Notes: generated by a model not told the origin, from the letters alone. A stretch of 64,000 bases of DNA from Candidatus Magasanikiibacteriota bacterium (GCA_016189025.1 JACPGS010000029.1:15911-79910), one strand, 5' to 3'; positions 8,474 through 52,192 are shown, counted from the first letter of the stretch. Numbers and translations are program-made.

Positions 8474-8944
8474 TTATAGGTTTTTTTCGTCTAGCGGCAG
8501 AGGCGTTTTTTTATTGTTGGCAGCGGATTTTTTGAAGTAGTAGAGAATCTGTATACCTAATACGAACAGTAGGGTAGAAGTAGCGGCGGAAACCAGGCAA
8601 TAGAGGCAATACGCGCCGATGACGAAAGCCTGGAGATAAAAAAACCAGAGGGTGGCGAGGAATCCCAAAACTGTTAGGCGAGCGAGCCAGCGCAGAATTA
8701 CTTCGCGACGGGTGTCCAGATAAGCCACGGCGCCCAAGAAGACGGCGAGATAATAGAGCGCTCCGAGGAGCGCCACCGGAATCTGATAGATCGTAGCGTA
8801 GCGGCTGGTGGTAACTACCTCGCAGCCCGCTAAGATTGAACAAGTCGGCGGCTCTCCTTGGTAGTGTTTAAGGGTAAGGTAACTGGCATCAACAAAACCC
8901 ACCAGACTGATTACCAGAAGGGCAAGGGCAAGCGGGCGAAGCAT
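8474..8944 (-). CDS. vitamin K epoxide reductase (VKOR) family protein
   Basis: 156 aa membrane protein with CSILAGC and CLYC motifs; adjacent DsbA-like gene. Confidence 0.7.
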   Translation of the reverse strand: MLRPLALALLVISLVGFVDASYLTLKHYQGEPPTCSILAGCEVVTTSRYATIYQIPVALLGALYYLAVFLGAVAYLDTRREVILRWLARLTVLGFLATLWFFYLQAFVIGAYCLYCLVSAATSTLLFVLGIQILYYFKKSAANNKKTPLPLDEKNL

Positions 8945-8956
8945 AGCGGAGCGCAG

Positions 8957-9673
8957 TTATTTTACGGCGGCGGCTACGGCATCGCGCAGAGCAGCAAAAT
9001 TGCCGGTGTGCCGCACGCCGTTTAAGAAGAAAGTGGGGGTGGCGTTCACGCCGGCGCCCCAGCCGCTCTCCTGGTCGGCGCGGATTTTATCGTCAGCCTC
9101 GGCCGCTTCCAGTTCAGCCGGGAATTTATTCAGGTCCAGCCCGAGGTCGCGGGCGTACCCCAAAAATAGCTCGCGCGCGCCGCCCTGGTCGCTCCATTCG
9201 CGCTGGCGTTCAAACAGCCGGTCGTGCATTTCCCAGAATTTATTCTGTTTGCCCGCGGCTTCGGCGGCGGCGGCGGCCAGTTTAGCTTGTTTGTGCTGCG
9301 GGAGCGGGAAGTGGCGATAAACAAAGCGGACGCGATCGCCAAGCTCGCGCATAATTTCTTGCACCGCCGGGAAAGCGGCCCCGCAAGCCGGGCACTGGAA
9401 GTCGCTGTATTCAATCAGCGTTACCCTGGCTTCGCGGTTGCCCTTAATCCAATCCCGCTCGGTGACAGTGGCCGGCGTGCCGACCGGACCAGCCGGCGCT
9501 TTATTAGTCAGGCGCGAGAGGCCGAAGACTACCAGCGCCAGAATCAAGATACTCCCGCCCCAAATAAGGAAACGACGCCTGGTTTGCGAGCGTCCGGCAC
9601 TGGCTGCCGCGGCGGCCCGTTCCTGCCGGCGCAATTGCCGCCGTTCGCGCTTGGTAAGCATTGGTTGTTCCAT
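8957..9673 (-). CDS. DsbA-family thiol:disulfide oxidoreductase (thioredoxin fold)
   Basis: FQCPAC active site, N-terminal TM anchor, next to VKOR. Confidence 0.8.
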   Translation of the reverse strand: MEQPMLTKRERRQLRRQERAAAAASAGRSQTRRRFLIWGGSILILALVVFGLSRLTNKAPAGPVGTPATVTERDWIKGNREARVTLIEYSDFQCPACGAAFPAVQEIMRELGDRVRFVYRHFPLPQHKQAKLAAAAAEAAGKQNKFWEMHDRLFERQREWSDQGGARELFLGYARDLGLDLNKFPAELEAAEADDKIRADQESGWGAGVNATPTFFLNGVRHTGNFAALRDAVAAAVK

Positions 9674-9694
9674 AAAAGGAGAGATGAATTATTA

Positions 9695-10342
9695 TTAGAT
9701 TTTGGTTAGCTGTTTTACTTCTTGGATAAAGAATCGTTTTACTGCCGGCCAAGAAATTTTGGTAAACATCTTGGGCATTGCTTGGGCGTCAGCTTCGGTA
9801 AAATAGGTGAGCGATTTATACAGATGATAGGGGTCGTAAGATACACCGGAGAATTGTTTCTGCAAAAAATTTAGCAACTGTTTCAAGGCGATTTGTTCTC
9901 GTTGCAAACAAAGATATAAATCGAGGAAATCCTTTTTGGTATTGCGTCCGGTAATCGCGCCGAGCTTCATCAGGGCAATATCGAGGGGGGTGGCCAAACG
10001 AATCCAGCCCCGGAAGCGAACCGGTTGCTGCCGGAGAGGATAGGGGAAAGTAATGAAGCTTACTTTCACGCCCGCCAGGATGCCTTCTACGGTGTTGGCC
10101 TCTTGATTAGTTAATTCAAAACGAGCCGTCTGTTTTAGTTGTTTTAGGAGCGGCGGGGCGGCAATATTTTTCGCGGTAAAAAAGTCCAAGTCCACCGATT
10201 GCCGGTGACCATAGTGCAGGGCGAGCGCCGTGCCGCCGGCCAAATAAAAATGCTGTAGCCAGCGTTTTCTGCTTAATTTGTTTAACAGACTAGCGGTGGC
10301 GGGGGCGAGCGTGCGGGCAAACATAGTTAGGCGATCTGCCAA
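9695..10342 (-). CDS. nucleotidyltransferase AbiEii/AbiGii toxin family protein
   Basis: AGGTALALHYGHRQSVDLDFF, the DUF1814/AbiEii N-terminal motif. Confidence 0.6.
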   Translation of the reverse strand: MADRLTMFARTLAPATASLLNKLSRKRWLQHFYLAGGTALALHYGHRQSVDLDFFTAKNIAAPPLLKQLKQTARFELTNQEANTVEGILAGVKVSFITFPYPLRQQPVRFRGWIRLATPLDIALMKLGAITGRNTKKDFLDLYLCLQREQIALKQLLNFLQKQFSGVSYDPYHLYKSLTYFTEADAQAMPKMFTKISWPAVKRFFIQEVKQLTKI

Positions 10343-10551
10343 AAATTTTTGGTTCGCCGCGAAGTGTTTTTACTGTGAGCGACAATCTGTTTAATGGCCG
10401 AGACGCCATACTGTTTTTTTAGCCACTGCACTGCCCGCCAGTCGCCTTTTTCGGTGAGGCGGGAAATAATAAAAGCGCGGTGTGCCGTTAAGCTAAGCTC
10501 TTGCTGGTCAACATCCCACATAAATTTTTTTACGGGGGCAGGCAGTGTCAT
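10327..10551 (-). CDS. small protein, putative cognate partner/antitoxin of the AbiEii-like gene
   Basis: 74 aa, overlaps the downstream AbiEii-like gene by 16 nt (operon). Confidence 0.4.
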   Translation of the reverse strand: MTLPAPVKKFMWDVDQQELSLTAHRAFIISRLTEKGDWRAVQWLKKQYGVSAIKQIVAHSKNTSRRTKNFWQIA

Positions 10552-10646
10552 ATTTAAGATATTGATACCATTATAACATATTTGATAACTAAATCAAACT
10601 GGGGATCAGGCGTTTAAAAAACGCTAGGGGGGCGGGGTTTTCGGCA

Positions 10647-30128: not shown

Positions 30129-30749
30129 ATGAAATATAGAGAAATACTCATCAGTCAGCTCAAATCTTTGCCTTATTTTAGCAAAGAAACGGTCGTATTG
30201 CTTAGCAAACAGTACGATCTGAAGCCCGCTACAGTTGATTCCTACATCAGCCGCTCTTTGGCGCGCAAAGATTTTATTGCCTTTAAAAATGGATTGTATG
30301 TTACGGCTGATTTTTATTACCAGAACGCCGGAGATATCTCGTACACATTTTATTTGGCCAATATAATGTGTCCGCCTTCGTACGTAAGCTCCTGGTCAGC
30401 TCTGCAGTACTATGAACTCGCCACCGAGGCCATTGGCACGGTAACGTCGGTAACGGCCAAAATTACCAGGATCCATAACAATCGGGCCGGGAGTTTTTCC
30501 TATCAGTTTATTAAAAAAAATTTATTTTCCGATTTTACCCTGATCCGGGGGAAGTTCGATTTTTTTATTGCCACGCCCGCTAAAGCGCTGTTTGATCTTA
30601 TCTATTTTAAAACTCACGCGTTCCGCGGCATCCGCGACATCGCCGCCGTAGATGGGATGATTGACAGTTTGCGCATTGATATTGCCGAAATGGAAACAAA
30701 AGAGCGCGATGCCTTTTATACAAAAGTAAAAAAATATTTGAGCATATGA
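30129..30749 (+). CDS. AbiEi-family antitoxin-like protein (type IV TA)
   Basis: 206 aa, N-terminal wHTH-like AbiEi_4 pattern (…IAFKNGLYVT…); overlaps the downstream AbiEii gene by 4 nt; about 38% GC. Confidence 0.55.
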   Translation: MKYREILISQLKSLPYFSKETVVLLSKQYDLKPATVDSYISRSLARKDFIAFKNGLYVTADFYYQNAGDISYTFYLANIMCPPSYVSSWSALQYYELATEAIGTVTSVTAKITRIHNNRAGSFSYQFIKKNLFSDFTLIRGKFDFFIATPAKALFDLIYFKTHAFRGIRDIAAVDGMIDSLRIDIAEMETKERDAFYTKVKKYLSI

Positions 30750-32029
30750 CCGCGACGAATCAGCTTTTTATTGCGCTTAAAACTAAGCTGGACAGTCTGT
30801 CGGCCTATGGTCCGGTGGATGCCGCAGTTAAGCGCAATATTCTGAAAGAAGAATTGCAGTATTATGTTTTGAATTTCCTCTACCACCATTCCGATTATAG
30901 TCAGTGGATTATGTACGGCGGTTCGGCCCTGCGGATTTGCCACGGGCTAAACAGGATGTCGGTAGATTTGGATTTTGAAATTCCGCAGCCGTGCGACGAC
31001 GCGTTTTTGCAGACGCTCGCCAACAGATTGTTGGACTATTTTAAAAATACTTATGCGGTGGAATCAGATTTTTTAACGATTAAAATTACCCGTCGGCGCG
31101 GGTTGACGCTTAAATTTATTGTCGGCGGGGTATTTGATACCGGTCATCCTTCCCCGCAGATACATGTTAAAATTGATCTGAATCATTTTGTGTCTAAAAA
31201 GCTGGTAATTGAGCGAATTCCTATCAATCACGACCAGCTGGCTTTTGTCATTACCACTTACAATATGTCGGCGCTGATGGCCAGTAAAATGGCGGCCATT
31301 TTTTCGCGGTCAAAGCGCGGCGTGGATAAAGAAATTTATGATGAAAAAGGCCGGGATATTTATGACTTGTTATGGTATATGGAAAAAAGAATTATACCCG
31401 ACTTAGATTATTTGAAAGAGAAAGTCCCAGAGATTGCCGATTTCAGGATAATGTTTGACCGGTTGACTGTAAAAATGAATACGGTAAGCGAAAAAAACCT
31501 GCGCGACGATTTAACGCCGCTGTTTGTGGAGCAGTCTTTTATTCAGAATTGGTTAATGAGCTGGCGCAGCAACTTTTTACGGTTAGTAAGGTCTTACGAC
31601 ATTAGAACGATCATAAAATTAGAAAAAATAAGCATCGGTAAAGAATTTCGTGCCGATAATTTTTTCTTTCATTTTATATACGCCACAGATAATGGACGCT
31701 TAACCACTATTAGTTGCTCGATTAGTGATTATTGGTTTTCCTTTCGCGAAGGCGACCTGACCGATTTAATCGCTCCGGTGAATGAAGAAATATTATCGCT
31801 GGTGGAGCACGTGTCCCAGGTGCAGATGAATGACAGAACCAAACAGTACATTGCTTTATTCTATAAAAAAGCAGAGGAATATCTTAAAAAAACGCACAAC
31901 GTTATTTTGGGTGATCGGCTTACCACCAAAACAATTCGGATGACTGCCGATAAGCTGAACCAGGGGGAACAAATAGTATTGAATAAATCGGCCTTACTTT
32001 CGTGCGAGCTGGAGGATTTGTTAAAGTAA
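30746..32029 (+). CDS. nucleotidyltransferase AbiEii/AbiGii toxin family protein with about 150-aa C-terminal extension
   Basis: YGGSALRICHGLNRMSVDLDF N-terminal NTase motif; 427 aa versus the usual 300 or so. Confidence 0.7.
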   Translation: MTATNQLFIALKTKLDSLSAYGPVDAAVKRNILKEELQYYVLNFLYHHSDYSQWIMYGGSALRICHGLNRMSVDLDFEIPQPCDDAFLQTLANRLLDYFKNTYAVESDFLTIKITRRRGLTLKFIVGGVFDTGHPSPQIHVKIDLNHFVSKKLVIERIPINHDQLAFVITTYNMSALMASKMAAIFSRSKRGVDKEIYDEKGRDIYDLLWYMEKRIIPDLDYLKEKVPEIADFRIMFDRLTVKMNTVSEKNLRDDLTPLFVEQSFIQNWLMSWRSNFLRLVRSYDIRTIIKLEKISIGKEFRADNFFFHFIYATDNGRLTTISCSISDYWFSFREGDLTDLIAPVNEEILSLVEHVSQVQMNDRTKQYIALFYKKAEEYLKKTHNVILGDRLTTKTIRMTADKLNQGEQIVLNKSALLSCELEDLLK

Positions 32030-33321: not shown

Positions 33322-33492
33322 TATAGAAGAATAGAACAACCAGCCAGCATCAGGTCGCGACCGATGAGTTCTCTTTTGGCGCGCAACTTTAGTGAGCACC
33401 AAAAGAGTGTCGGTCGCGACCAACCAGGCAGTTTTCCGCAATAGCGATAGCGACCAGGTTAAAAATGTGGTATAGCCAGCATTCTTTTCCAG
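33322..33492 (-). mobile_element. MITE-like repeat copy 3 (degenerate, inverted relative to copies 1 and 2)
   Basis: Matches the reverse complement of copy 1 in blocks (tagaagaat, agcatcagg, caatagcgatagcgaccagg, agcattctt) with a reorganised central hairpin; overlaps the predicted start of the arginine decarboxylase gene. Confidence 0.55.
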
Positions 33493-34892
33493 TCTTAATT
33501 TATTACTCAACAGCATCAGTTGTGTCCAAAAAGAACTTCAAAAAATTCTGGAAACTGGGCCGCCGGGATTTTAGCACCGAACATTTTGACATTAACCCCG
33601 ACGGCGAGCTCGTCATCCGCGAAGGCAACTATCAGTATAATGTTTTGGATTTGGTGCGCAAATTCGGCTCGCCCACTGAAGTTTTTTTGCCTTTTGTGCT
33701 GGAGGAGCGCCTGGAGCGCCTGTTCGACGTGGCCGAGCAAGAGATGAAGCGCCATCATTATCGCGGCAAGTTTTTTTATCACTACCCGATGAAGGTGAAC
33801 CAGAACCGGGAATTCGTACTGCCCTTAGTTTCCGAAGGGGCGCACTTGGAAGTGGGTTCACCCAACGAGCTGTGGCTGGTGAAAAAGCTTTGGGAGGGAG
33901 AAAATTTCCACGCTAAAATCCGGGTGCTCTGCAACGGCCCCAAAACGCCGCGCTACATTAACCTCATCACCGGCCTGCAATCCCAGGGGCTGGCGATTGT
34001 GCCGATTATTGAAGATGCCGAAGAATTGCGTTTGTTAAAAGATTTTCGCGGCGAACTGGGCGTGCGCATTAATCTGCAGTCAAAAGTGCAGTCGCACTGG
34101 GACAAAAAGATTGATCGCTTCGGCTTGTTGGAGGAGGAAATTTTAAGTTTGGGAAAAATTCGCAACCTCAAAATTCTCCATTATCACATTGGCTCACAGG
34201 TAGAACGCGAGAACGACCTATTGGCGGTGCTGAAAGAAGCGTTGCGCGCTTATGTCAAGGTGCGCGCGCAAAACCCTTCGCTTGATACCCTGGACGTCGG
34301 CGGGGGGTTTGCCGTGCCCTACGAGAAAAAGCCGATGTATACCGTGGAGTCGGTGTTGCGGCGAATGTTTTCGGCGCTGGCAAACGCCTCGGCCGCGGCC
34401 GGCATCCCGCACCCCAATTTGATTGTGGAATGGGGCCGGCACCTGGCCGCGCCAGCGCAAATTTCGGTTTTTAAAGTAGTGGCCACCAAGGTAATCCCTA
34501 AAGGCATTGCTAAGTTCTGGTACGTGATTGATGGGAGTTTCATGACGGATTTGCTGGATACCTGGTCGATCCATCAAAAGTGGCATATTGTTCCGGTTGG
34601 CCACGCGGGCGCGGAAAAACGCCACCGCGTTTGGCTGGGCGGTTTGACCTGCGATTCCGACGACAAATACGCTGATGCCGAAGGATATGTGCTCTTGCCC
34701 CGGATAGAGGATTTGGGGCCAGGCGAGGATTTGTACTTGGCGATTTTTGACACCGGCGCCTACCAGGATTCCTTTGCCATGCATCATTGCCTGATTTCTA
34801 GTCCGGCCAAGATTGTGCTGCAGAATGGCCTGGTTACCATGGCGCGCAAGCGCGAATCGCCGGAAGAGATCGGCAAGATGTTTGGGTGGTAG
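33465..34892 (+). CDS. speA: arginine decarboxylase (Orn/DAP/Arg decarboxylase family 2, SpeA-like); start uncertain
   Basis: YPMKVNQN PLP-lysine motif, LEVGSPNEL block; first 28 nt lie inside repeat copy 3. Confidence 0.7.
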   Translation: MWYSQHSFPVLIYYSTASVVSKKNFKKFWKLGRRDFSTEHFDINPDGELVIREGNYQYNVLDLVRKFGSPTEVFLPFVLEERLERLFDVAEQEMKRHHYRGKFFYHYPMKVNQNREFVLPLVSEGAHLEVGSPNELWLVKKLWEGENFHAKIRVLCNGPKTPRYINLITGLQSQGLAIVPIIEDAEELRLLKDFRGELGVRINLQSKVQSHWDKKIDRFGLLEEEILSLGKIRNLKILHYHIGSQVERENDLLAVLKEALRAYVKVRAQNPSLDTLDVGGGFAVPYEKKPMYTVESVLRRMFSALANASAAAGIPHPNLIVEWGRHLAAPAQISVFKVVATKVIPKGIAKFWYVIDGSFMTDLLDTWSIHQKWHIVPVGHAGAEKRHRVWLGGLTCDSDDKYADAEGYVLLPRIEDLGPGEDLYLAIFDTGAYQDSFAMHHCLISSPAKIVLQNGLVTMARKRESPEEIGKMFGW

Positions 34893-34954
34893 AGGCGCAG
34901 CTGGTAGCTGGTAGGAAGTAGCTGGTAGGCGAACGGCAAAAATTTGTATGCTAT

Positions 34955-35839
34955 ATGATTTTAACTTTAAAGAATAACCCGGGGGCGGCTCTTTTTGGGC
35001 TGGCGTTGAGTTTGATTTTGGCTTCAACTGCCGCAGCGCAAACAAATGTTTCAGGTAGTGGAGTAGGCAGGTCTAAAGTACCGGTGAGCCAGGCCGGTGA
35101 AACGTGCTATACCAATACAAAAGCCAGTGCTGTTAAGAACAGCCGGATATCGGTATTAACCTACATGCAAAGTGCGGCGAAAAATTCTAAAGACGTACAG
35201 CCGTATTTGGAATCTTGGCGAAAAATGTTTTTATTAAAAAACCGCATGAGCAATACATATTTTAAAGAACATGTTATTTACCCAACCTTTGTGAGGAAAG
35301 AACAGAAAAAAGTGAAGGGGGCGGATTATGTGGTGTTTAGAGTATTTTTACAGCTTAAGTTTGGCGACTATTATATAAGCGAAGTGCACCCGAAAGATGA
35401 CAGGATTTCATTATTAACAGGTACCGGCAAAGAGAAACGGAATGAGTTTGTTAACAGCAACGAATTTTTGGTCCGGATGGTTAAAGGCAAACCGCTGCCC
35501 GCCGCGCTTGTCCTGCAGAGGTATAAAGCGCGCTATATTGCCAAGACTCTTAAACCCGGCCATAAAAATTATGATGATGTAATCGCTAATGTTGGTAGTA
35601 TCAGAATTAATGGTAAATTGCCAGCGGTGTTGGCAGGTTGTGGAATGGCCATCGAGAGCGCTCTGGATTGCCCCGGTATACAGTATTTGCCTGCTTTAAC
35701 TTATGACGCACGGAATAATAAAGTAGCGTTGTTAGGGAGCGGAGAAAATGGTGATCAATGCTATTCGTCAGAAGTTAATTTAATCACGGGCAAGGCAGCG
35801 TGCCAGGGGCCGTTTGCTTGTATGAAAATTGGTTTGTAA
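34955..35839 (+). CDS. secreted hypothetical protein (signal peptide, Cys-rich C-terminus)
   Basis: 294 aa, AT-rich, interrupts the polyamine operon. Confidence 0.5.
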   Translation: MILTLKNNPGAALFGLALSLILASTAAAQTNVSGSGVGRSKVPVSQAGETCYTNTKASAVKNSRISVLTYMQSAAKNSKDVQPYLESWRKMFLLKNRMSNTYFKEHVIYPTFVRKEQKKVKGADYVVFRVFLQLKFGDYYISEVHPKDDRISLLTGTGKEKRNEFVNSNEFLVRMVKGKPLPAALVLQRYKARYIAKTLKPGHKNYDDVIANVGSIRINGKLPAVLAGCGMAIESALDCPGIQYLPALTYDARNNKVALLGSGENGDQCYSSEVNLITGKAACQGPFACMKIGL

Positions 35840-35850
35840 GCAAGTAGGTT

Positions 35851-36963
35851 TTGCAATTGTTTATGCAAAATTCTAAATTTGCCAAACTTTCTCCCAGCCT
35901 GCGCCAGCTTATTGTATTGGAAGCAAAGCAGTCTAGAACAGGGGCCATTAGTCCGTATGTATCGGCGAGCAAAACTCCGGTATCGGCCTATGCCCAGGAA
36001 ACGCTCCAGCACTGCAATGCCGTGGCCACGCTCCAGGCTGCCTTATGGCTCAAAAACCATTTAGACCACGGCGGCAAGCTGGTGGTAACGCTCGCCGGCG
36101 CTTTGAGTTCATTTCAAATTGGCGTGATGCTGGCGGAACTTATCCGTAAAAATAAGGTGCATTTAATTTCCGCTACGGCTGCCAATCACGAAGAATCGTA
36201 TTATCGCTACGTGGCGCATTCCCATTACGCTTACATTCCACGCTATACCGAGCTTACCCCGGCGCAAGAGGCGGAACTGCGCGATGCGGGCTTGCGCCGG
36301 ATTACCGACACGTTTTTGCCGGAAGACCAGAGTGTGCGCATTATGGAACCGCACCTGCTCCGGATGTGGAAGCGGGCGCAAAAGAAGGGCGAACGGTATT
36401 TTCCGCACGAATACTTCGGGCGGTTGTTTGAGCAGAAATTAATTAAGCCTGACCTCCAGGCTAACCCCTACGACTGCTGGGCCTATGCTGCCTGGCAGAA
36501 GAAAGTGCCGATTGTCGTGCCCGGGTTTGAAGACTCCACTATGGGCAATATCTTTGCCAGTTATTGCTACGCCGGTAAATATCGGCAGGATAAAGGCCCG
36601 CGGCTTAATCCCCAGATTATGAAAACCGGGCTGGAGTATTTTGGTTTCCTCTACGACTGGTACCTGGATACTGCCAAAAAATCATCCATTGCTTTTTTGC
36701 AACTAGGCGGCGGCATTGCGGCGGATTTTCCTATCTGTGTAGTCCCTTCGTTGAAACATGACCTGCGCCTTAAAAACGTGCGCCCCTGGGCCGGGTTTAT
36801 AGAAATCGGCTCCAGCCCCATGTCCTACGGCTCTTACTCCGGCGCCGGCGGCAAAGAAAAAATCACCTGGGATAAACTAGACCCTGCGAGCTATTACCAA
36901 ATTATTCAGAGCGACGTAACCGTAGTGTTCCCCTGGATCGCGGCGGTGTTATTGGGGTTATAA
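35851..36963 (+). CDS. deoxyhypusine synthase-like protein (probable homospermidine synthase)
   Basis: 370 aa, DHS family blocks (…TLAGALSSFQIGVMLAELIRKNKVHLISATAANHEES…). Confidence 0.65.
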   Translation: MQLFMQNSKFAKLSPSLRQLIVLEAKQSRTGAISPYVSASKTPVSAYAQETLQHCNAVATLQAALWLKNHLDHGGKLVVTLAGALSSFQIGVMLAELIRKNKVHLISATAANHEESYYRYVAHSHYAYIPRYTELTPAQEAELRDAGLRRITDTFLPEDQSVRIMEPHLLRMWKRAQKKGERYFPHEYFGRLFEQKLIKPDLQANPYDCWAYAAWQKKVPIVVPGFEDSTMGNIFASYCYAGKYRQDKGPRLNPQIMKTGLEYFGFLYDWYLDTAKKSSIAFLQLGGGIAADFPICVVPSLKHDLRLKNVRPWAGFIEIGSSPMSYGSYSGAGGKEKITWDKLDPASYYQIIQSDVTVVFPWIAAVLLGL

Positions 36964-36968
36964 TTATT

Positions 36969-37376
36969 ATGCTTTTAGTAAAAACTAAAATTGGGCCGAG
37001 TAAAATTCATGGTATCGGATTGTTTGCGGATGAATTTATTCCTAAAGGCAAACTGATGTGGCGGGTGGAGCATGATTTTGATCTTGAGTTTGAGGCCAGT
37101 CAGCTGGTCAATTTATCCGCTCCGTCCCGAGCGCAGTTTTTGAAATATTCTTACCGACATCCGAAGACGGGGAAGTACGTTCTGCCTTTTGACGATGCTC
37201 GTTTTTTTAATCACGCTGATCATCCGAACATTAACAGCGTCTATCCCAACGGTAATAACGGCGAATGTGATGTAGGTATTGCGGCGCAAGATATTATGGC
37301 TGGCGAAGAATTGACGTGCAATTATCGGGAGTTTGATGCCGATAGCGTTGTAAAATTAGAGTTTGAAGCCGGTTAA
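36969..37376 (+). CDS. SET domain protein (putative lysine methyltransferase)
   Basis: GIGLFA…, FFNHADHPN, GEELTCNY SET motifs; 135 aa. Confidence 0.75.
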   Translation: MLLVKTKIGPSKIHGIGLFADEFIPKGKLMWRVEHDFDLEFEASQLVNLSAPSRAQFLKYSYRHPKTGKYVLPFDDARFFNHADHPNINSVYPNGNNGECDVGIAAQDIMAGEELTCNYREFDADSVVKLEFEAG

Positions 37377-37378
37377 TT

Positions 37379-38455
37379 ATGAGCGGTGTTGTTAAAAATT
37401 CTAAATTGCAAAAAATCTCCTCTTACGATCCCGGCGGTATTTACACCAATGGTCAATTATTCGGCTTACCGTTTACCAACCAGGAATCCGAAGTAGTGAT
37501 TGTGCCGATGCCGTGGGAAGTTACCACGTCGTACCGCGACGGCACGGCGCAGGGGCCGCGGACAGTGCTCAAAGCATCGTATCAGGTAGACTTGTACGAC
37601 CTGGATGCTCCCGAAGCTTGGGAATTAGGTATCGGGATTCAGCCGATTTCCTCTGCTTGGAGCCGGCAGAATACTGTATTGCGGCGCCAAGCAAAAAAAT
37701 ATCTGGATTATCTGTATAATGGCGGCGACACCAGAGTAAAGTGGGTGCGCCAGACGCTGGCGGAAATTAACCAAGCCGGGGCCGAGCTAAATGGCTGGAT
37801 GAAAAAGGAAACTGCCAAATTGCTAAAACAAAATAAATTAGTGGGGGTATTAGGCGGGGAGCATAGCGTATCGCTTGGATTTATGCAGGCGCTGGCGGAG
37901 CAATATCCCCGGTATTCCATATTGCACCTTGATGCCCACGCTGACTATCGCGCGGCTTATGAAGGGTTTGAATTTTCTCACGCCTCTATCCAGTATAACG
38001 CGGGGAAGATTAAGCAGGTGGACCGGCAGGTGCTGGTCGGCATCCGCGATTATTCGCACGCCGAGGCGCAGCGCATCGCCGAATCGCACGGCCGAATTGC
38101 GGCGTTTCCGGATAGAGAAATAAAGCGCGGCGCCTACGCGGGAAAAACGTGGCAAGCGCAATGCGGCGAAATTATTAAGCCGCTCTCTAAAGAAGTTTAT
38201 ATCAGTTTTGATATTGATATCCTAGACCCCTCGCTGTGTCCGCATACCGGCACGCCGGTGCCGGGCGGCCTGGAGTTTGAACAGGTATTTTATCTGATTG
38301 AAGCCGTCATCAAGAGCGGGCGTAAAATTATCGGTTTCGATCTGTGCGAGGTGGCGCCAGGCGTTGGCAATAACGGCGAATGGGATGCCATCGTCGGGGC
38401 GCGGGTGCTGTATCGCCTGGCTATTTTAATGGCTAAATCACAGCGGCGAATATAG
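37379..38455 (+). CDS. speB: agmatinase / arginase-family ureohydrolase
   Basis: HLDAHADY, SFDIDILDP manganese-binding motifs; adjacent to speA-like gene. Confidence 0.75.
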   Translation: MSGVVKNSKLQKISSYDPGGIYTNGQLFGLPFTNQESEVVIVPMPWEVTTSYRDGTAQGPRTVLKASYQVDLYDLDAPEAWELGIGIQPISSAWSRQNTVLRRQAKKYLDYLYNGGDTRVKWVRQTLAEINQAGAELNGWMKKETAKLLKQNKLVGVLGGEHSVSLGFMQALAEQYPRYSILHLDAHADYRAAYEGFEFSHASIQYNAGKIKQVDRQVLVGIRDYSHAEAQRIAESHGRIAAFPDREIKRGAYAGKTWQAQCGEIIKPLSKEVYISFDIDILDPSLCPHTGTPVPGGLEFEQVFYLIEAVIKSGRKIIGFDLCEVAPGVGNNGEWDAIVGARVLYRLAILMAKSQRRI

Positions 38456-38593: not shown

Positions 38594-39112
38594 ATGGTCA
38601 AAGTTTTACTGATCATCGCCCACGACGGCTTCCAGCCCGTGGAGTATGGCGAACCAAAACGTATTCTCACGGAGGCAGGGATTACGGTGGTAACGGCCAG
38701 CAATATGTCGGGAATGGCGACTGCTGCCCATACCGGCGAGCAGGTAGCGATTGATTGTACGCTTGATCATGTCCAGGCGGGCGATTACGACGGCATATTT
38801 TTTGTCGGCGGCCCGGGCGCTCTAGAACATTTGGATAATGAACAATCCTACGAAATCGCGCGCGCGGCCGCGGCCCTGGGCAAGCCCTGGGGAGCAATTT
38901 GCATCTCCACGCGGATTTTGGCGCACGCGGGCGTGCTCAAAAACAAAACCGCCACCGGGTGGGATGGCGACAATGAACTGGGCGGAATTTTAGCGGCCGC
39001 TGGCGCCACGTATTTACGCGAGCCAGTCGCGGTAGACGGCCTGCTGATTACCGCCGCCGGCCCGACCGCGGCCCTGGCCTGGAGCCAAAAAATTCTGGCG
39101 GCGTTGCGCTAG
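38594..39112 (+). CDS. DJ-1/PfpI family protein
   Basis: 172 aa class-I glutamine amidotransferase-like fold, GAICIS nucleophile-elbow region. Confidence 0.7.
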   Translation: MVKVLLIIAHDGFQPVEYGEPKRILTEAGITVVTASNMSGMATAAHTGEQVAIDCTLDHVQAGDYDGIFFVGGPGALEHLDNEQSYEIARAAAALGKPWGAICISTRILAHAGVLKNKTATGWDGDNELGGILAAAGATYLREPVAVDGLLITAAGPTAALAWSQKILAALR

Positions 39113-40394: not shown

Positions 40395-43300
40395 TTAAAT
40401 TTCTACTACCGGATGTTCTCCTTCTGGATTCCAATTGGCGTAGCCATTAAAATTGGTTACTGGTTCTTTTATCAAAGTGACCTTAGGCTGTTCCTTAAAA
40501 TGCTGCTCATAATATCGTGCCACCTCGGGACGATTAGTGCTTGATCGTGATGTCTGATCAAGCGGTACTACGGTATGGGGAATGTTGCGTTGTGCTGCTA
40601 TCTGGCGTAGCGCGGCAAGAGTTTGCGCTATTAGTGTATCAGGCACTACCTGACTAAGCAATCCCTCTTGCGGGTTATTAGCTCGCACCAAGAGCACCAG
40701 CTCACCTTGAGGCGTTTTAGTTTCAATGGCGAGGACCGAGCCCCGCAGGCGTTCCTGGGGAGTATGGCGACCCGTAACAAAGATCAAGGGAGTAATGGTG
40801 CGATATTCACCGCGGGCGAACGCTCGGTGGTGGCTAGTAAAACAAGCATCGCCAATGTCACCAGCATAGATTCGTAAGATACCGCGCACCGGCACCAAGG
40901 TAACCTCTACAGTTTTCCCGCCCGCCTTTACTAGCGGAGTTTCTGTCTGCTGCAAAGCAGACAATTGTTCGGCGGCGATCACCAAAGGGTGCTTTTGCAG
41001 TTTGGGTTTTATCCCCCACACTAACTGTAGTTCTTTCAATAAGGTACTGGAAAACGGTTGGTGTCCGGTACGATGCTCTTCCTGTTTATTATTTAGATAA
41101 TGCTCGTTAAGGTATTCCCCTAAATGGTTATACCAGAGCTCCACTTGGGTGGCAGAAGATACCTCGGTGTTCTCTTCCAGAGCACGTTCTATTACTGATT
41201 GTCGGCCGTCCGGCATTACCAGTAGTGAGTGGTAAGCGCTGATGATCTGCAATAGTCGATCACGATCAATTACCTTTTTCGGCAGCAGCATCAGGATAGC
41301 TTCCAACCAGCTGATTAGTTCCCGGTCGCGTGCCCCCCGGTCAGGGGAAAGAGTTGGAGCTTCCAGGCGTTCCAGTGTTGCCCGGGTTTCCACCAGCGTT
41401 TGACGTTGTCTGGTCAGTGCTTTGCGATTAACGGGTTTCTCGGTTTCCCAAGCAGTAGCTAGTTCATCCAACCTGGCAATTTGTTGATCAATCTCCAATA
41501 CCAGGCGCTGGTGTTCTTCCGCCCACCAGTGAGGGAGTTGGTCAATGTTCCGGGCAGTCCGGTAGGCAACGTCAAGTTTTTTTACCCACCCCCGTAGGTC
41601 GGGGTTAGTGAGAATTTCTTGTTCGCGTGCTGCCTGCGCCTGGGGAATTTGTTCTCGGCTGCTTGCCACTGATGGCAACTTAAAGGTTACTTCTTGGTAT
41701 CCCGCGGGGAGGGCAGCTTGGTCGGGATTAGCAGCGACGGTGGTTTGCCAAAGCTGAATATTTTTTCGGGGGTCATCATTTTTTTGTTCCCAACTAGTAG
41801 CTCCTTTAATTGCATGAAAAAACTCTAAACCGAGGTCGGTATTTAGTTCCGGTGGGACTTGATCAGCCAGTAAGGCAGTTTGCAGGCGGCGCCCGAATTT
41901 TTTAATCTCGTTGATAATAAATCCTTTATTGGGTAATTCTTCCAGCCGGATGCCGAGAGTACTGGTTAATTCTTGTCGTACTTCGGCGGGCAGGTCAGTG
42001 ATTTTTTCGGACCGAGAAATGGCCACATGCCAGCGGAGGAGGGTAGGCAAATTATACATGCCGTAGGTATGCACAAAATCTTTCAACAGTTCTGCATCTT
42101 CGGCACTGTCACGTCGCAGTACTCCCCGCGTCAGTGCCTGCTCTACCAGCGGGTCTAGGTCAGTTTTCCAAGGATCATATTTTTCCCGTGCCGCGCGGGG
42201 GTGGCTTTTTAACAATTTTCCATATATGGGCTGCCAGGAAAAATTTTCGGCCAAAGAGTTTAGAGTTTCGGGGGGCAGCAGCGCCTGGAGGATCGCCGGA
42301 TATTTCAGAAATTCCGTGGGACAAAAAAAGGAAGGGGGTAGCTCGACAAAGGCTTGGCGGAGATTGGCTTGGGTTTCGGCAGGGTAGGCCATCGTCAGTT
42401 CGGTTATTTTTTTTTGGTAAAAGCCGTCGTGCAACAATTCAAGGTTAAGGGTAGGGAGACGTTGAATAATAGTATGGATAATTTCTCGTCTTTCTTCCAG
42501 CGAGAGGGGGAAGGCGGAGTACTTTAGGCGTTCCCAAGGGTTTTCGCGGCATAAGCGCAGTTTTACGGCGGAGATTTCCTCTGGGGATAGTTGAAGTTTT
42601 GCCAGAACCCCTTCATCAAGAAGATGAAAAACATGCCGACCAACCAATATATCAATAATACTATCGCGCTCGGGACGGGTAAACTCAACAGGAATTATGG
42701 GTAGGGAACTGGTTTCATGGTCAGCCACTTCGGTCAACCACTTTAAGCGTTGTTCCGGGGTGAGGGGAATTATGGGGTAAAAACGAGTCAGGTAATTATA
42801 ATAAATAGGAATAGCAGCATCTATTATTTTTGCTTGTTCGGCCTCGGGTAAAGCAAGGAAGAGGGGTTCAAATTCATCAAAATCCCGGATAATCGTAGCG
42901 GGGTTGTATTTTTGGCGCGCCGCAAAAATAGCGGGTGCGGCTGCGGTGCGATGTTCGGGGGGAAAGTCACGGAGAGAGAAACGTTGCAGCATTGACGGTT
43001 TAGTTCCTTGCGTCTGCAGTTGGGAAAAAATTTCATAACGCACTGCCGGAGTCCATTCTTGGCTGTCCCGATAGTAACCAGTTGCCACCGAAGCTAAGAC
43101 GTCCGGAAGATTGCCAAGCCTTTCCTTTATACAAGGGAGGATTTCGGTGCTGGTCTGGCAGGATTTCCTGGCCAGTTCATATAATTCATTAGCAGCGCTG
43201 TCGACCCCAGGAGTTTCGTCCGGCAGTTGGCGATAGAAAGCAATTGTCGGTTCTAACCCTTCGGCCAATTTTTCCTGTAGTCGCTTATCTACCATCTTGG

Positions 43301-43871
43301 CAATTTTGTCCTCTACTCCATACCAGTTAACTCGTGGCAATTCCCGGGCGGAAAGATATAGTTGAATGGCGGCCAAGAGGTCAGAATCCAGCAGTTTTTG
43401 AATTTTTGCCAACGCTTCATCGCCCCGCTTCCAGGCCAGACTATTATGCATTCTTTCCACCTCTTCTTTAATTTTGTCTTCCCTTATCCCAGCCTCTCCC
43501 GCATAGCGGGTATAGAGGGGGAAAGCGATAGCATCGCCGGCATGTAGTGCTAGTCGCCGGGTCGCCATTTCCAGAAACTCCAGTCGTGCCTTGGGATGAT
43601 GCAACTGGCGGCTCGCTTCTAGGGCAAGGCGCGGGTCTGGGTTAATCCACTGGGTTTCAAATTCTTCCGCGACCGTTTTTACCCTATCTAGTTCTTCTCC
43701 CGGGGCATCAACTTCTTTGGGATCACGGTCCTGGTTTTCTCCTGATAAGTAAGTGTCAGTGAAGGTGTTGATGGTGGCGATAATTTCTTTGAGTCGAGGC
43801 GGCAACTCCATGGTTTCTGGCGGTGATAAAGTTTCTGGTGGCGGGCCGGTGGTTTCCGGATTTCTGATCAT
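40395..43871 (-). CDS. large hypothetical protein (1158 aa, no recognisable domain)
   Basis: Long uninterrupted ORF, alpha-helical/Pro-rich composition, no TM, no Walker motif; tightly packed between two paralogous small membrane genes. Confidence 0.6.
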   Translation of the reverse strand: MIRNPETTGPPPETLSPPETMELPPRLKEIIATINTFTDTYLSGENQDRDPKEVDAPGEELDRVKTVAEEFETQWINPDPRLALEASRQLHHPKARLEFLEMATRRLALHAGDAIAFPLYTRYAGEAGIREDKIKEEVERMHNSLAWKRGDEALAKIQKLLDSDLLAAIQLYLSARELPRVNWYGVEDKIAKMVDKRLQEKLAEGLEPTIAFYRQLPDETPGVDSAANELYELARKSCQTSTEILPCIKERLGNLPDVLASVATGYYRDSQEWTPAVRYEIFSQLQTQGTKPSMLQRFSLRDFPPEHRTAAAPAIFAARQKYNPATIIRDFDEFEPLFLALPEAEQAKIIDAAIPIYYNYLTRFYPIIPLTPEQRLKWLTEVADHETSSLPIIPVEFTRPERDSIIDILVGRHVFHLLDEGVLAKLQLSPEEISAVKLRLCRENPWERLKYSAFPLSLEERREIIHTIIQRLPTLNLELLHDGFYQKKITELTMAYPAETQANLRQAFVELPPSFFCPTEFLKYPAILQALLPPETLNSLAENFSWQPIYGKLLKSHPRAAREKYDPWKTDLDPLVEQALTRGVLRRDSAEDAELLKDFVHTYGMYNLPTLLRWHVAISRSEKITDLPAEVRQELTSTLGIRLEELPNKGFIINEIKKFGRRLQTALLADQVPPELNTDLGLEFFHAIKGATSWEQKNDDPRKNIQLWQTTVAANPDQAALPAGYQEVTFKLPSVASSREQIPQAQAAREQEILTNPDLRGWVKKLDVAYRTARNIDQLPHWWAEEHQRLVLEIDQQIARLDELATAWETEKPVNRKALTRQRQTLVETRATLERLEAPTLSPDRGARDRELISWLEAILMLLPKKVIDRDRLLQIISAYHSLLVMPDGRQSVIERALEENTEVSSATQVELWYNHLGEYLNEHYLNNKQEEHRTGHQPFSSTLLKELQLVWGIKPKLQKHPLVIAAEQLSALQQTETPLVKAGGKTVEVTLVPVRGILRIYAGDIGDACFTSHHRAFARGEYRTITPLIFVTGRHTPQERLRGSVLAIETKTPQGELVLLVRANNPQEGLLSQVVPDTLIAQTLAALRQIAAQRNIPHTVVPLDQTSRSSTNRPEVARYYEQHFKEQPKVTLIKEPVTNFNGYANWNPEGEHPVVEI

Positions 43872-51238: not shown

Positions 51239-52192
51239 ATGTCCTACCTTTCGCCAATAATTAAAACCCGTCTGGAAGAAAAACTCGCCAAACTCAATAA
51301 ACTTCGCCCCCTACCAAAATCAGCCGTCCAAAAACTTCGAGAAAAATTTCAGATCGAGATGACCTACAACTCAAACGCCATTGAAGGCAACTCTTTAACT
51401 TTAAAAGAGACATTTTTGGTTATTAACGAAGGCATCACGGTAAAAGGCAAGCCTCTAAAAGATCATTTAGAGGCGAAAGACCACCATGCGGCGCTGGAAT
51501 ATTTATATGACTTGATAGACAAGGGCAAAAAATACACTGTTTCTGAAATGTTTATTAAAAACTTGCATCAAATTATTGTACAGGAAACCGACAAGGAATG
51601 GGCGGGCCGCTACCGAAACGCTAAGGTGATTATTGGCGGTGCAGATCATACTCCACCAGATGCGTTGCAAGTACCTAATCTGATGAGGGATTTAATTGTT
51701 TGGCTAAATTCACAAAAAAACAAACTGAATATTATTGAACTTTCCGCTTTGCTACATCATAAATTAGTCCACATTCATCCTTTTTTTGACGGCAATGGAC
51801 GAACCGCTCGCCTGACCATGAACCTGCTGCTGATGCAAGCCGGCTACCCGCTAGTTATCATCCTAAAAAATGATCGTAAAAAATACTACGACGTATTGGA
51901 CAAAGCGGATAAAGGCAACCATGAACCATTGGTTAAATTTATCGCTCAATCTATCGAGCGCTCGCTTGATATTTATTTAAAAACTTTAACTCCGGCCACT
52001 ACCAAACGGGAAAAATTTTTGACGCTCGCTGAAATATCCAAAACTACTCCTTTTTCTGCAAAATATTTAAACTTGCTGGCGAGGCAAGGTAAACTAGAGG
52101 CGCACAAAGAAGGCCGGGACTGGTTGACGACCAAAGAAGCGGTTGAGCGATACATAAGTAATAGAACAAGACAGCGAAAAATTTCAAAATAA
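51239..52192 (+). CDS. Fic/DOC family protein with C-terminal wHTH
   Basis: HIHPFFDGNGRTARL Fic motif; AT-rich. Confidence 0.85.
   Translation: MSYLSPIIKTRLEEKLAKLNKLRPLPKSAVQKLREKFQIEMTYNSNAIEGNSLTLKETFLVINEGITVKGKPLKDHLEAKDHHAALEYLYDLIDKGKKYTVSEMFIKNLHQIIVQETDKEWAGRYRNAKVIIGGADHTPPDALQVPNLMRDLIVWLNSQKNKLNIIELSALLHHKLVHIHPFFDGNGRTARLTMNLLLMQAGYPLVIILKNDRKKYYDVLDKADKGNHEPLVKFIAQSIERSLDIYLKTLTPATTKREKFLTLAEISKTTPFSAKYLNLLARQGKLEAHKEGRDWLTTKEAVERYISNRTRQRKISK

Follow-up and report, generated by a model that had tools for sequence, protein, structure and literature searches.

What does a gene for a SET-domain protein do inside a bacterial polyamine operon? The question is raised by a 64,000-nt stretch of a Candidatus Magasanikbacteria genome (Patescibacteria, the candidate phyla radiation or CPR), hereafter called the window, to whose full length the coordinates refer unless another locus is named. 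Five open reading frames (ORFs) follow one another on its + strand at 33465-38455 and encode, in this order, a SpeA-like arginine decarboxylase (ADC), a 294-aa ORFan, a homologue of deoxyhypusine synthase (DHS), the SET-domain protein and a hydrolase of the arginase family (Table 1). A preliminary description of the locus had left two possibilities for the SET protein, namely (i) that it acts on a protein modified through the DHS-like enzyme or (ii) that it is unrelated to polyamine chemistry. The second is the better-supported reading: the locus is probably an ordinary agmatine-to-homospermidine operon into which two low-GC genes were inserted, the SET gene being a hitchhiker. The five-gene order, the coordinates and the 5-nt and 2-nt gaps around the SET gene were confirmed from the ORFs, the junctions and the family matches.

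In the pathway that we propose, arginine would be converted into agmatine by the SpeA-like ADC, two agmatines would be joined into N1,N9-bis(guanidino)homospermidine (G44G) by the DHS homologue (SpeY), and the arginase-family enzyme would strip the two guanidino groups of G44G as urea, yielding homospermidine. These specificities are the ones expected by analogy with characterised SpeY systems. In this Magasanikbacteria lineage, two horizontally acquired low-GC genes would have been inserted, the ORFan between speA and speY and the SET gene between speY and speB.

Both inserts differ in composition from the rest of the operon. The GC content at third codon positions (GC3) is 0.419 for the SET gene (z = -2.2) and 0.437 for the ORFan (z = -2.0), for a window mean of 0.60, and the ADC, SpeY and hydrolase genes have values of 0.65, 0.61 and 0.58, respectively; overall GC is 0.43 for both inserts. 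An AT-rich secreted protein had already been recognised at the place of the ORFan, which its GC of 0.43, its GC3 of 0.44 and a signal-peptide pattern bear out; that the SET gene is equally AT-rich goes beyond that description. Low GC marks two more genes of the window, which code for an AbiEii toxin and for a protein of the Fic/DOC family, and the inserts share this signature with such cargo.

Furthermore, the slot that follows speY has a variable content in related genomes. It holds a SET gene in the window and in another Magasanikbacteria locus (L070), an unrelated 127-aa ORF in L018, an unrelated 248-aa ORF in L064 and an MNT + HepT pair in L002. In the latter, the toxin-antitoxin genes MNT (Polbeta nucleotidyltransferase, PF18765) and HepT (PF01934) lie between speY and aguB/aguA (L002 8137-8996). 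Elsewhere in CPR loci the polyamine genes abut, with 23-43 nt between the ADC and DHS genes (L006, L002) and 14-20 nt between the DHS and arginase genes (L012, L068). Upstream of speY, the place of the 294-aa ORF is taken in L018, L064 and L070 by a gene for a TrmB-family regulator. Since their GC3 is low and the content of the slot varies, we read the SET gene and the ORFan as inserted cargo. The MNT/HepT cargo of L002 resembles the SET gene of the window by its slot downstream of speY, its orientation and its tight packing. Unlike this pair, the SET gene corresponds to no known selfish element and is devoid of mobile-element boundary marks: no integrase flanks it, no convincing direct or inverted repeat surrounds either insert (the short matches being at about chance level), and the defence (PADLOC) and phage (PHROG) libraries gave no match for the SET protein or the ORFan.

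The SET gene is separated from its neighbours by the junctions TAA-TTATT-ATG on its 5' side and TAA-TT-ATG on its 3' side, and no convincing terminator was found within the five-gene array. It is probably co-transcribed with the operon; this co-transcription, together with a probable translational coupling, would be a consequence of the landing site. The start of the DHS-like gene at ATG 35863 is supported by a 100%-identical 366-aa protein at NCBI. The SET and DHS-like proteins are each 100% identical to an NCBI protein from a metagenome-assembled genome (MAG), and the identical SET protein occurs on seven other, short contigs assembled from this same population. No RNA family was detected by an Rfam scan of the whole window. 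As a side observation, the exact 13-nt repeat AAAATTCTAAATT occurs in codons 2-6 of speY and in codons 6-10 of the ureohydrolase gene, just 3' of each low-GC insert; about 0.1 chance matches are expected per 4 kb and the repeat may be a coincidence. The spacer between speA and the ORFan contains two tandem copies of GTAGCTGGTAGG and a partial third copy, GCAGCTGGTAG.

Table 1. Features of the window discussed in the text (positions counted from the first letter of the 64,000-nt stretch)
Feature	Position	Strand	Description
AbiEii cassette	30129-32029		Just upstream of ruvC; two genes, GC 0.42
SpeA-like arginine decarboxylase (ADC)	33465-34892	+	475 aa; Pfam Orn_Arg_deC_N 1e-23
Tandem repeat	34898-34929		speA/ORFan spacer
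Secreted ORFan (predicted)	34955-35839	+	294 aa; no family match
DHS homologue, proposed SpeY	35863-36963 (ATG; in-frame TTG at 35851)	+	366 aa; PF01916 DS 3e-27
13-nt repeat, first copy	35867-35879		Within speY
Spacer, speY stop to SET start	36964-36968		5 nt, TTATT
SET-domain protein	36969-37376	+	135 aa; PF00856 2.9e-12
Spacer, SET stop to hydrolase start	37377-37378		2 nt, TT
Arginase-family ureohydrolase	37379-38455	+	358 aa; PF00491 Arginase 7e-53
13-nt repeat, second copy	37395-37407		Within ureohydrolase gene
DJ-1/PfpI-family gene	38594-39112		Between ureohydrolase and PfkB kinase genes; GC 0.60
1158-aa ORF	40395-43871	-	Strong AT skew; no Pfam domain
Fic/DOC-family gene	51239-52192		C-terminal HTH_17; GC 0.40; likely acquired

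The linkage between SET and polyamine genes was surveyed from both sides. On the SET side, none of the 80 metagenomic loci examined carries an ADC, DHS-like or agmatinase gene. On the DHS side, a genome scan gave 251 relatives, from which the best 80 species-level loci (74-81% identity) were retained and their neighbours within 7 kb considered; tblastn and a profile hidden Markov model of SET applied to six-frame ORFs both detected a SET gene in one locus out of 80, L070, which belongs to another Magasanikbacteria MAG. A functional SET-DHS system is thus not borne out by the neighbourhoods. The linkage is essentially, though not strictly, unique to this genome, one more species sharing it. The most plausible view is that the two genes came together by accident in this lineage, and not as parts of a conserved system. 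In the literature searched, no paper connects SET domains with homospermidine, with SpeY or with CPR bacteria; the sole co-mention of SET and polyamines concerns chloroviruses, in which the genes for the two are unlinked.

The neighbours of the SET gene do not point to a substrate either, a search for which had been suggested together with a structure prediction. Among the 80 SET loci no neighbour family recurs, the commonest real neighbour being a HAD hydrolase (five loci); an apparent cluster of neighbours from 11 loci was rejected, as its ORFs are antisense to SET itself. The closest relatives of the SET protein (58-61% identity) are encoded next to RibD_C, FolD/SHMT or PNP_UDP_1 nucleosidase genes, and a Falkowbacteria copy adjoins a gene for RNase III. 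For instance, in L177 (1268-5883) a relative with 61% identity is found beside a PNP_UDP_1 gene and a divergent block composed of amine-oxidase (PF01593), MFS and short-chain dehydrogenase genes, a single case. The Pfam family PNP_UDP_1 includes MTA/SAH nucleosidases. A SET homologue from WWE3 is located 54 nt upstream of efp, the gene for elongation factor P (EF-P), on the same strand (L168 5001-6025). This SET-EF-P link was rejected as due to chance, a tblastn search with the WWE3 EF-P having found no other case in the 160 loci or in the window.

The SET protein itself belongs to a large family of stand-alone proteins of about 130 aa, with 1038 clusters at E<=1e-3. Its named hosts are mostly Patescibacteria, including WWE3, Falkowbacteria, Giovannonibacteria, Paceibacterota and Parcubacteria. 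When 120 homologues were compared by a neighbour-joining tree and by reciprocal BLAST, the picture was star-like, members being 50-65% identical whatever their lineage.

All indications are that the protein is an intact SET-domain enzyme, presumably a protein-lysine methyltransferase dependent on S-adenosylmethionine (SAM), as judged from its motifs and its modelled fold. The SET domain scores 47.4 bits for a Pfam cut-off of 22.4, and a profile built from 36 homologues matches the SET domains of KMT2D, KMT2C and MLL1 (up to 6e-12), the alignments bringing the NH and ELTxxY motifs into register. In the window protein these motifs read ARFFNHADHPN, which contains the SAM-binding RFxNH, and GEELTCNY at the C-terminal end, with the catalytic Tyr; they align with the NHS and ELTYDY of KMT2D. 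Among 120 homologues, D75, N81, H82 and E114 are conserved in all and R78 and Y119 in 119. The structure prediction supports the same assignment: the AF2 model has a pLDDT of 89.3, and Foldseek matched it at a probability of 1.00 to vSET, Set7, MLL1, NSD and EZH2, the best matches being vSET (3kma), Set7 of S. pombe (5h6z) and a P. falciparum protein (4rz0), with 18-26% sequence identity. The protein resembles the minimal SETs (PBCV-1 vSET 3kma, Set7 5h6z and Go1-SET) by its length (about 120-135 aa), its restriction to the SET core with no pre-SET or post-SET Zn module, and its NH and ELxxxY motifs. It differs from them by its location in a metabolic operon of a CPR bacterium and by its low identity with the solved structures. 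Go1-SET of Methanosarcina mazei methylates the chromatin protein MC1-alpha (PMC3980110). By analogy with other stand-alone SET proteins of prokaryotes and viruses, the substrate of the window SET would most likely be a lysine of an endogenous protein, for example a nucleoid- or translation-associated one, and probably not a polyamine or a protein modified by DHS.

The reading of the operon builds on recent work on the bacterial DHS homologues known as SpeY, which join two agmatines into G44G (Li, Baniasadi, Liang, Phillips & Michael, J Biol Chem 2026, PMC13625781). G44G is converted into homospermidine either by a SpeY-linked, G44G-specific SpeB-like ureohydrolase (DUH) or by an AIH-like enzyme (DIH) together with an amidohydrolase (PMC13625781). 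The agmatine-dependent pathway to homospermidine was first shown in Thermus thermophilus and SpeY is essential in Anabaena; speY clusters with an ADC of any of several folds, the AdoMet_dc (SpeD) fold having been neofunctionalised to ADC, and speY+duh or speY+dih constitutes a transferable module (PMC13625781). All three enzyme families of this pathway are clustered in the window as well, and both types of module are found among its CPR orthologues. The differences are that the CPR clade is very divergent from the curated SpeY/DHS models and that the operon of the window is interrupted by two unrelated genes.

When the 80 DHS-like loci were rescanned with every type of pathway enzyme met in them, at least one agmatine-pathway gene was found within 7 kb in 49 loci, and 30 loci combine a decarboxylase gene with one for a guanidino-group hydrolase. 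By type, the loci contain NCPAH (35 loci), AIH (32), LysA-like PLP decarboxylase (24), SpeA-like ADC (12) and arginase-type enzymes (11). The DHS-like family is small, with 1031 matches at E<=1e-3 in a representative library of 1.84 billion proteins. Among its nearest relatives outside CPR, which show about 42% identity, three independent representatives are fused with an AdoMet_dc (SpeD-like) domain: P0249 and P0287 associate AdoMet_dc with the DS domain, and P0246 (756 aa) combines AdoMet_dc, a small-molecule N-methyltransferase domain of the NNMT/PNMT/TEMT type and DS (L179 97-2367, on a single-gene 2.5-kb JGI contig). The fusion of a decarboxylase to the DHS-like domain and the clustering with agmatine genes argue for a small-molecule chemistry and against protein hypusination. 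We therefore propose, by analogy, that the DHS-like enzyme acts as a SpeY, that is a G44G synthase, and not as a homospermidine synthase (HSS). It had been described as a probable homospermidine synthase; a role in making homospermidine is retained from the gene context, and the type of enzyme is revised. The tri-fusion P0246 also hints that some organism makes an N-methylated product of the agmatine or homospermidine type.

Comparison with true DHS gives a consistent picture. The protein shares the PF01916 fold family with human (6XXM/1DHS) and archaeal (7CMC) DHS, the match covering residues 62-365, and its EKITWDKL aligns with EGVSWGKI of the archaeal enzyme (7cmc); the Lys of the ITWDK motif is presumably the catalytic lysine, by reference to human DHS Lys329. 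Unlike DHS, it shows only a weak similarity to the archaeal (E = 5e-9) and human (7e-4) enzymes, has no linkage to eIF5A/EF-P and occurs in a context of agmatine metabolism. No EF-P gene was found within 7 kb in the 80 DHS-like loci, nor in the window. The NCBIfam scores fail to separate SpeY from DHS: with the curated equivalogs used for SpeY, the protein reaches 59.7 bits for NF001980, whose cut-off is 450, and 59.4 bits for NF002699, whose cut-off is 500; the DHS model TIGR00321 gives 54.9 bits (cut-off 304) and the other DHS models 47-56 bits (cut-offs 350-434). The nearest non-CPR relatives likewise fall under every cut-off, with NF001980 as top model in eight out of ten. Since the curated cut-offs are failed, our claim is limited to an enzyme that works like SpeY and forms a separate subfamily, not a curated member. 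A clear grouping of the DHS-like protein with homospermidine synthases and a SET gene brought by an unrelated mobile insertion had been named as outcomes that would disconnect the two genes. The SpeY-type neighbours and fusions, the cargo-like composition of SET and the variable slot go in this direction, and the sequence scores do not discriminate.

Across CPR classes (Peribacteria, Peregrinibacteria, Gracilibacteria, Magasanikbacteria and Doudnabacteria), the identity of the SpeY-like protein is 74-81%, its neighbours being far less conserved (52-68% for ADC and 55% for SET). Copies with 75-78% identity are also present in MAGs labelled as Gammaproteobacteria, Deltaproteobacteria and Bdellovibrionota. 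This high identity may reflect a strong constraint, a recent transfer or mislabelled bins.

The two other enzymes of the operon can be placed in the same pathway. For the ADC, which has PLP-decarboxylase domains, the best NCBIfam models are the biosynthetic ADC NF003763 (215 bits; cut-off 369) and speA TIGR01273 (194 bits; cut-off 624), whose profiles exceed the protein in length by about 160 aa. This size would fit the 'ancestral' ADC of alanine racemase (AR) fold devoid of the four-helix bundle (PMC13625781). The gene context suggests a specificity for arginine rather than ornithine. Orthologues of the window ADC (52-68% identity) adjoin the DHS-like gene in 12 of the 80 CPR loci. The ureohydrolase reaches 152.6 bits with the agmatinase model TIGR01230 (cut-off 174.3), and its translation displays the Mn-ligand motifs GGEHS, LDAHADYR and SFDIDILDP. 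Its orthologues (65-68% identity) adjoin speY in L018, L064 and L035. By analogy with the SpeY-linked enzymes, we propose that it is a G44G (diagmatine) ureohydrolase or an agmatinase.

Another type of decarboxylase deserves mention. In 24 of the 80 CPR loci, the AIH-NCPAH-SpeY cluster contains a LysA-like PLP decarboxylase (L022 2575-4035; also L015, L021, L023, L037, L046 and L048), which scores 270.7 bits with TIGR01048, slightly under the cut-off of 297.9, and is 21-25% identical to the window ADC. It is a candidate for a diaminopimelate-decarboxylase homologue neofunctionalised to ADC, a source that is absent from the list of PMC13625781.

Several points weigh against an ordinary SpeY-type operon carrying a hitchhiking SET gene. 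The speY-SET adjacency recurs in L070, a diverged Magasanikbacteria (55% identity for SET, 76% for SpeY and 54% for ADC). Moreover, the SETs of the window and of L070 are alone among the 120 homologues in having a [YW]PNG loop, and Cys73, which is present in 111 of the 120, is missing from both; these shared traits suggest a long retention at this position and possibly a shifted specificity. The gaps of 5 nt and 2 nt tie the expression of SET to that of the operon. As for the enzymes, the SpeY identity rests on context and not on membership of a sequence clade, every curated SpeY/DHS cut-off being failed (about 60 bits vs 300-500), and no CPR member is found among the SpeY proteins tested in PMC13625781, where Patescibacteria are not mentioned.

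The comparison with L070 also informs the history of the locus. Despite the speY-SET adjacency, the downstream module of L070 consists of NCPAH and AIH (8731-10598) and not of a ureohydrolase. Syntenic Magasanikbacteria, with the order RuvC-unk257-ADC...PfkB, indeed differ in their G44G module: the window, L018 and L064 have a ureohydrolase of the arginase family, and L070 has NCPAH plus an agmatine-deiminase-like enzyme. The presence of a ureohydrolase or of NCPAH+AIH at one locus is accounted for by a module swap such as PMC13625781 predicts (speY+duh vs speY+dih). In the star-like tree of the 120 homologues, the SETs of the window and of L070 are not mutual best matches. Their common rare motifs favour one insertion over two, and the simplest history is that of one old SET insertion, kept in two lineages and replaced in others.

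The retention of SET in L070 and its tight coupling leave some room for recruitment, and we consider any role of SET directed at polyamines or at the pathway, all variants taken together, to be unlikely. In particular, it is quite unlikely that SET was captured by the homospermidine operon and retooled, as the loss of Cys73 and the [YW]PNG loop could indicate, to methylate an aminobutyl amine, either of the polyamine product or of a lysine of a pathway enzyme. One form of such a role would be the methylation of a lysine of SpeY, the ureohydrolase, the ADC or a regulator, which would tune homospermidine synthesis in a lineage-limited way. Tight coupling would fix a stoichiometric co-expression of SET with these partners, and the adjacency is kept in L070. 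However, SpeY is 74-81% identical across CPR with or without SET, so that at the level of overall identity no SET-specific change of the partner is evident; the linkage is missing in L018, L064, L006 and L002, sister lineages equipped with these same enzymes, and the SET family is widespread without these partners. We hold this explanation to be quite improbable.

In another form, SET would have been recruited as a small-molecule N-methyltransferase, its channel for the lysine side chain, -(CH2)4-NH3+, accommodating an aminobutyl end, that of homospermidine or of one of its precursors, to give N-methylated homospermidine. Lysine and an aminobutyl amine are chemically analogous, which makes this conceivable; operonic coupling, the conservation of speY-SET in two diverged Magasanikbacteria despite the swap of the hydrolase module, the absence of Cys73 and the [YW]PNG loop in both linked SETs, and P0246 as an independent example of a methyltransferase linked with the DHS-like clade all go in the same direction. 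Against this, 79 of the 80 speY loci have no SET gene and all 80 SET loci are devoid of polyamine genes, the composition of SET is foreign, the slot holds unrelated cargo in sister genomes, and the methyltransferase of P0246 has a different fold and is encoded on a context-free 2.5-kb contig. Furthermore, we know of no SET-domain enzyme that methylates a small molecule. Such a recruitment therefore appears very unlikely.

Finally, the first possibility of the preliminary description, in which the DHS-like enzyme would modify a protein in a hypusine-like manner, such as EF-P, and SET would then methylate that protein or residue, is barely credible: membership of the DS family, the conserved catalytic-lysine motif and the WWE3 SET homologue directly upstream of efp would agree with it, but this adjacency is unique (none in the 80 SET loci, the 80 DHS-like loci or the window), the loop of the WWE3 EF-P is KMGRGSA, with Arg rather than Lys at what we take to be the modified position, and the DHS-like clade occurs in agmatine-pathway clusters and in fusions with decarboxylase domains. 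All the bacterial SpeY homologues tested are, moreover, small-molecule G44G synthases (PMC13625781).

The second insert, the ORFan, would be a low-GC gene that entered the space between speA and speY in this lineage only. It has no match in Pfam, NCBIfam, PADLOC or PHROG, and among 5.8 billion clusters it matched only itself. Its sequence contains a single hydrophobic segment by hydropathy (residues 9-27), preceded by K6 and followed by AAA|QT, and no other transmembrane segment; the protein is basic, with six Cys in its mature part. These features clearly predict a Sec-secreted protein with an n-h-c signal peptide. Its single-sequence AF2 model has a pLDDT of 37, too low to be of use.

Other genes of the window complete this description. 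The low-GC cassette located upstream of ruvC encodes a 427-aa AbiEii nucleotidyltransferase toxin (PF08843, 2.8e-21), which an upstream 206-aa ORF overlaps; the latter matches no Pfam family and is presumably the antitoxin. The DJ-1/PfpI-family gene that follows the ureohydrolase gene was not found at this place in the syntenic loci L018, L064 and L070; there, PfkB comes next after the hydrolase genes, separated from them by no more than a short unidentified ORF. The Fic/DOC-family gene and the long ORF of the - strand are listed in Table 1.

In terms of known systems, the operon is a CPR member of the SpeY homospermidine pathway and its SET protein a member of the minimal SET family. This locus would become important for SET biology only if the enzyme acts on a polyamine or on a pathway enzyme: if SET does methylate a polyamine, it would be the first SET enzyme with a small-molecule substrate, and a route to N-methylated homospermidine in CPR would be indicated. 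For the CPR-wide family of SET proteins of about 130 aa, with its more than 1000 clusters, gene context yields no clue to a substrate. The locus also calls for caution, as a tight, coupled gene order in streamlined genomes can come from cargo inserted at a permissive site and need not mean a shared function. The main yield of this analysis is the extension of the agmatine/SpeY pathway of homospermidine synthesis to Patescibacteria. The conservation and the clustering of the SpeY-like enzyme in spite of a minimal metabolism suggest that homospermidine matters to these tiny episymbionts.

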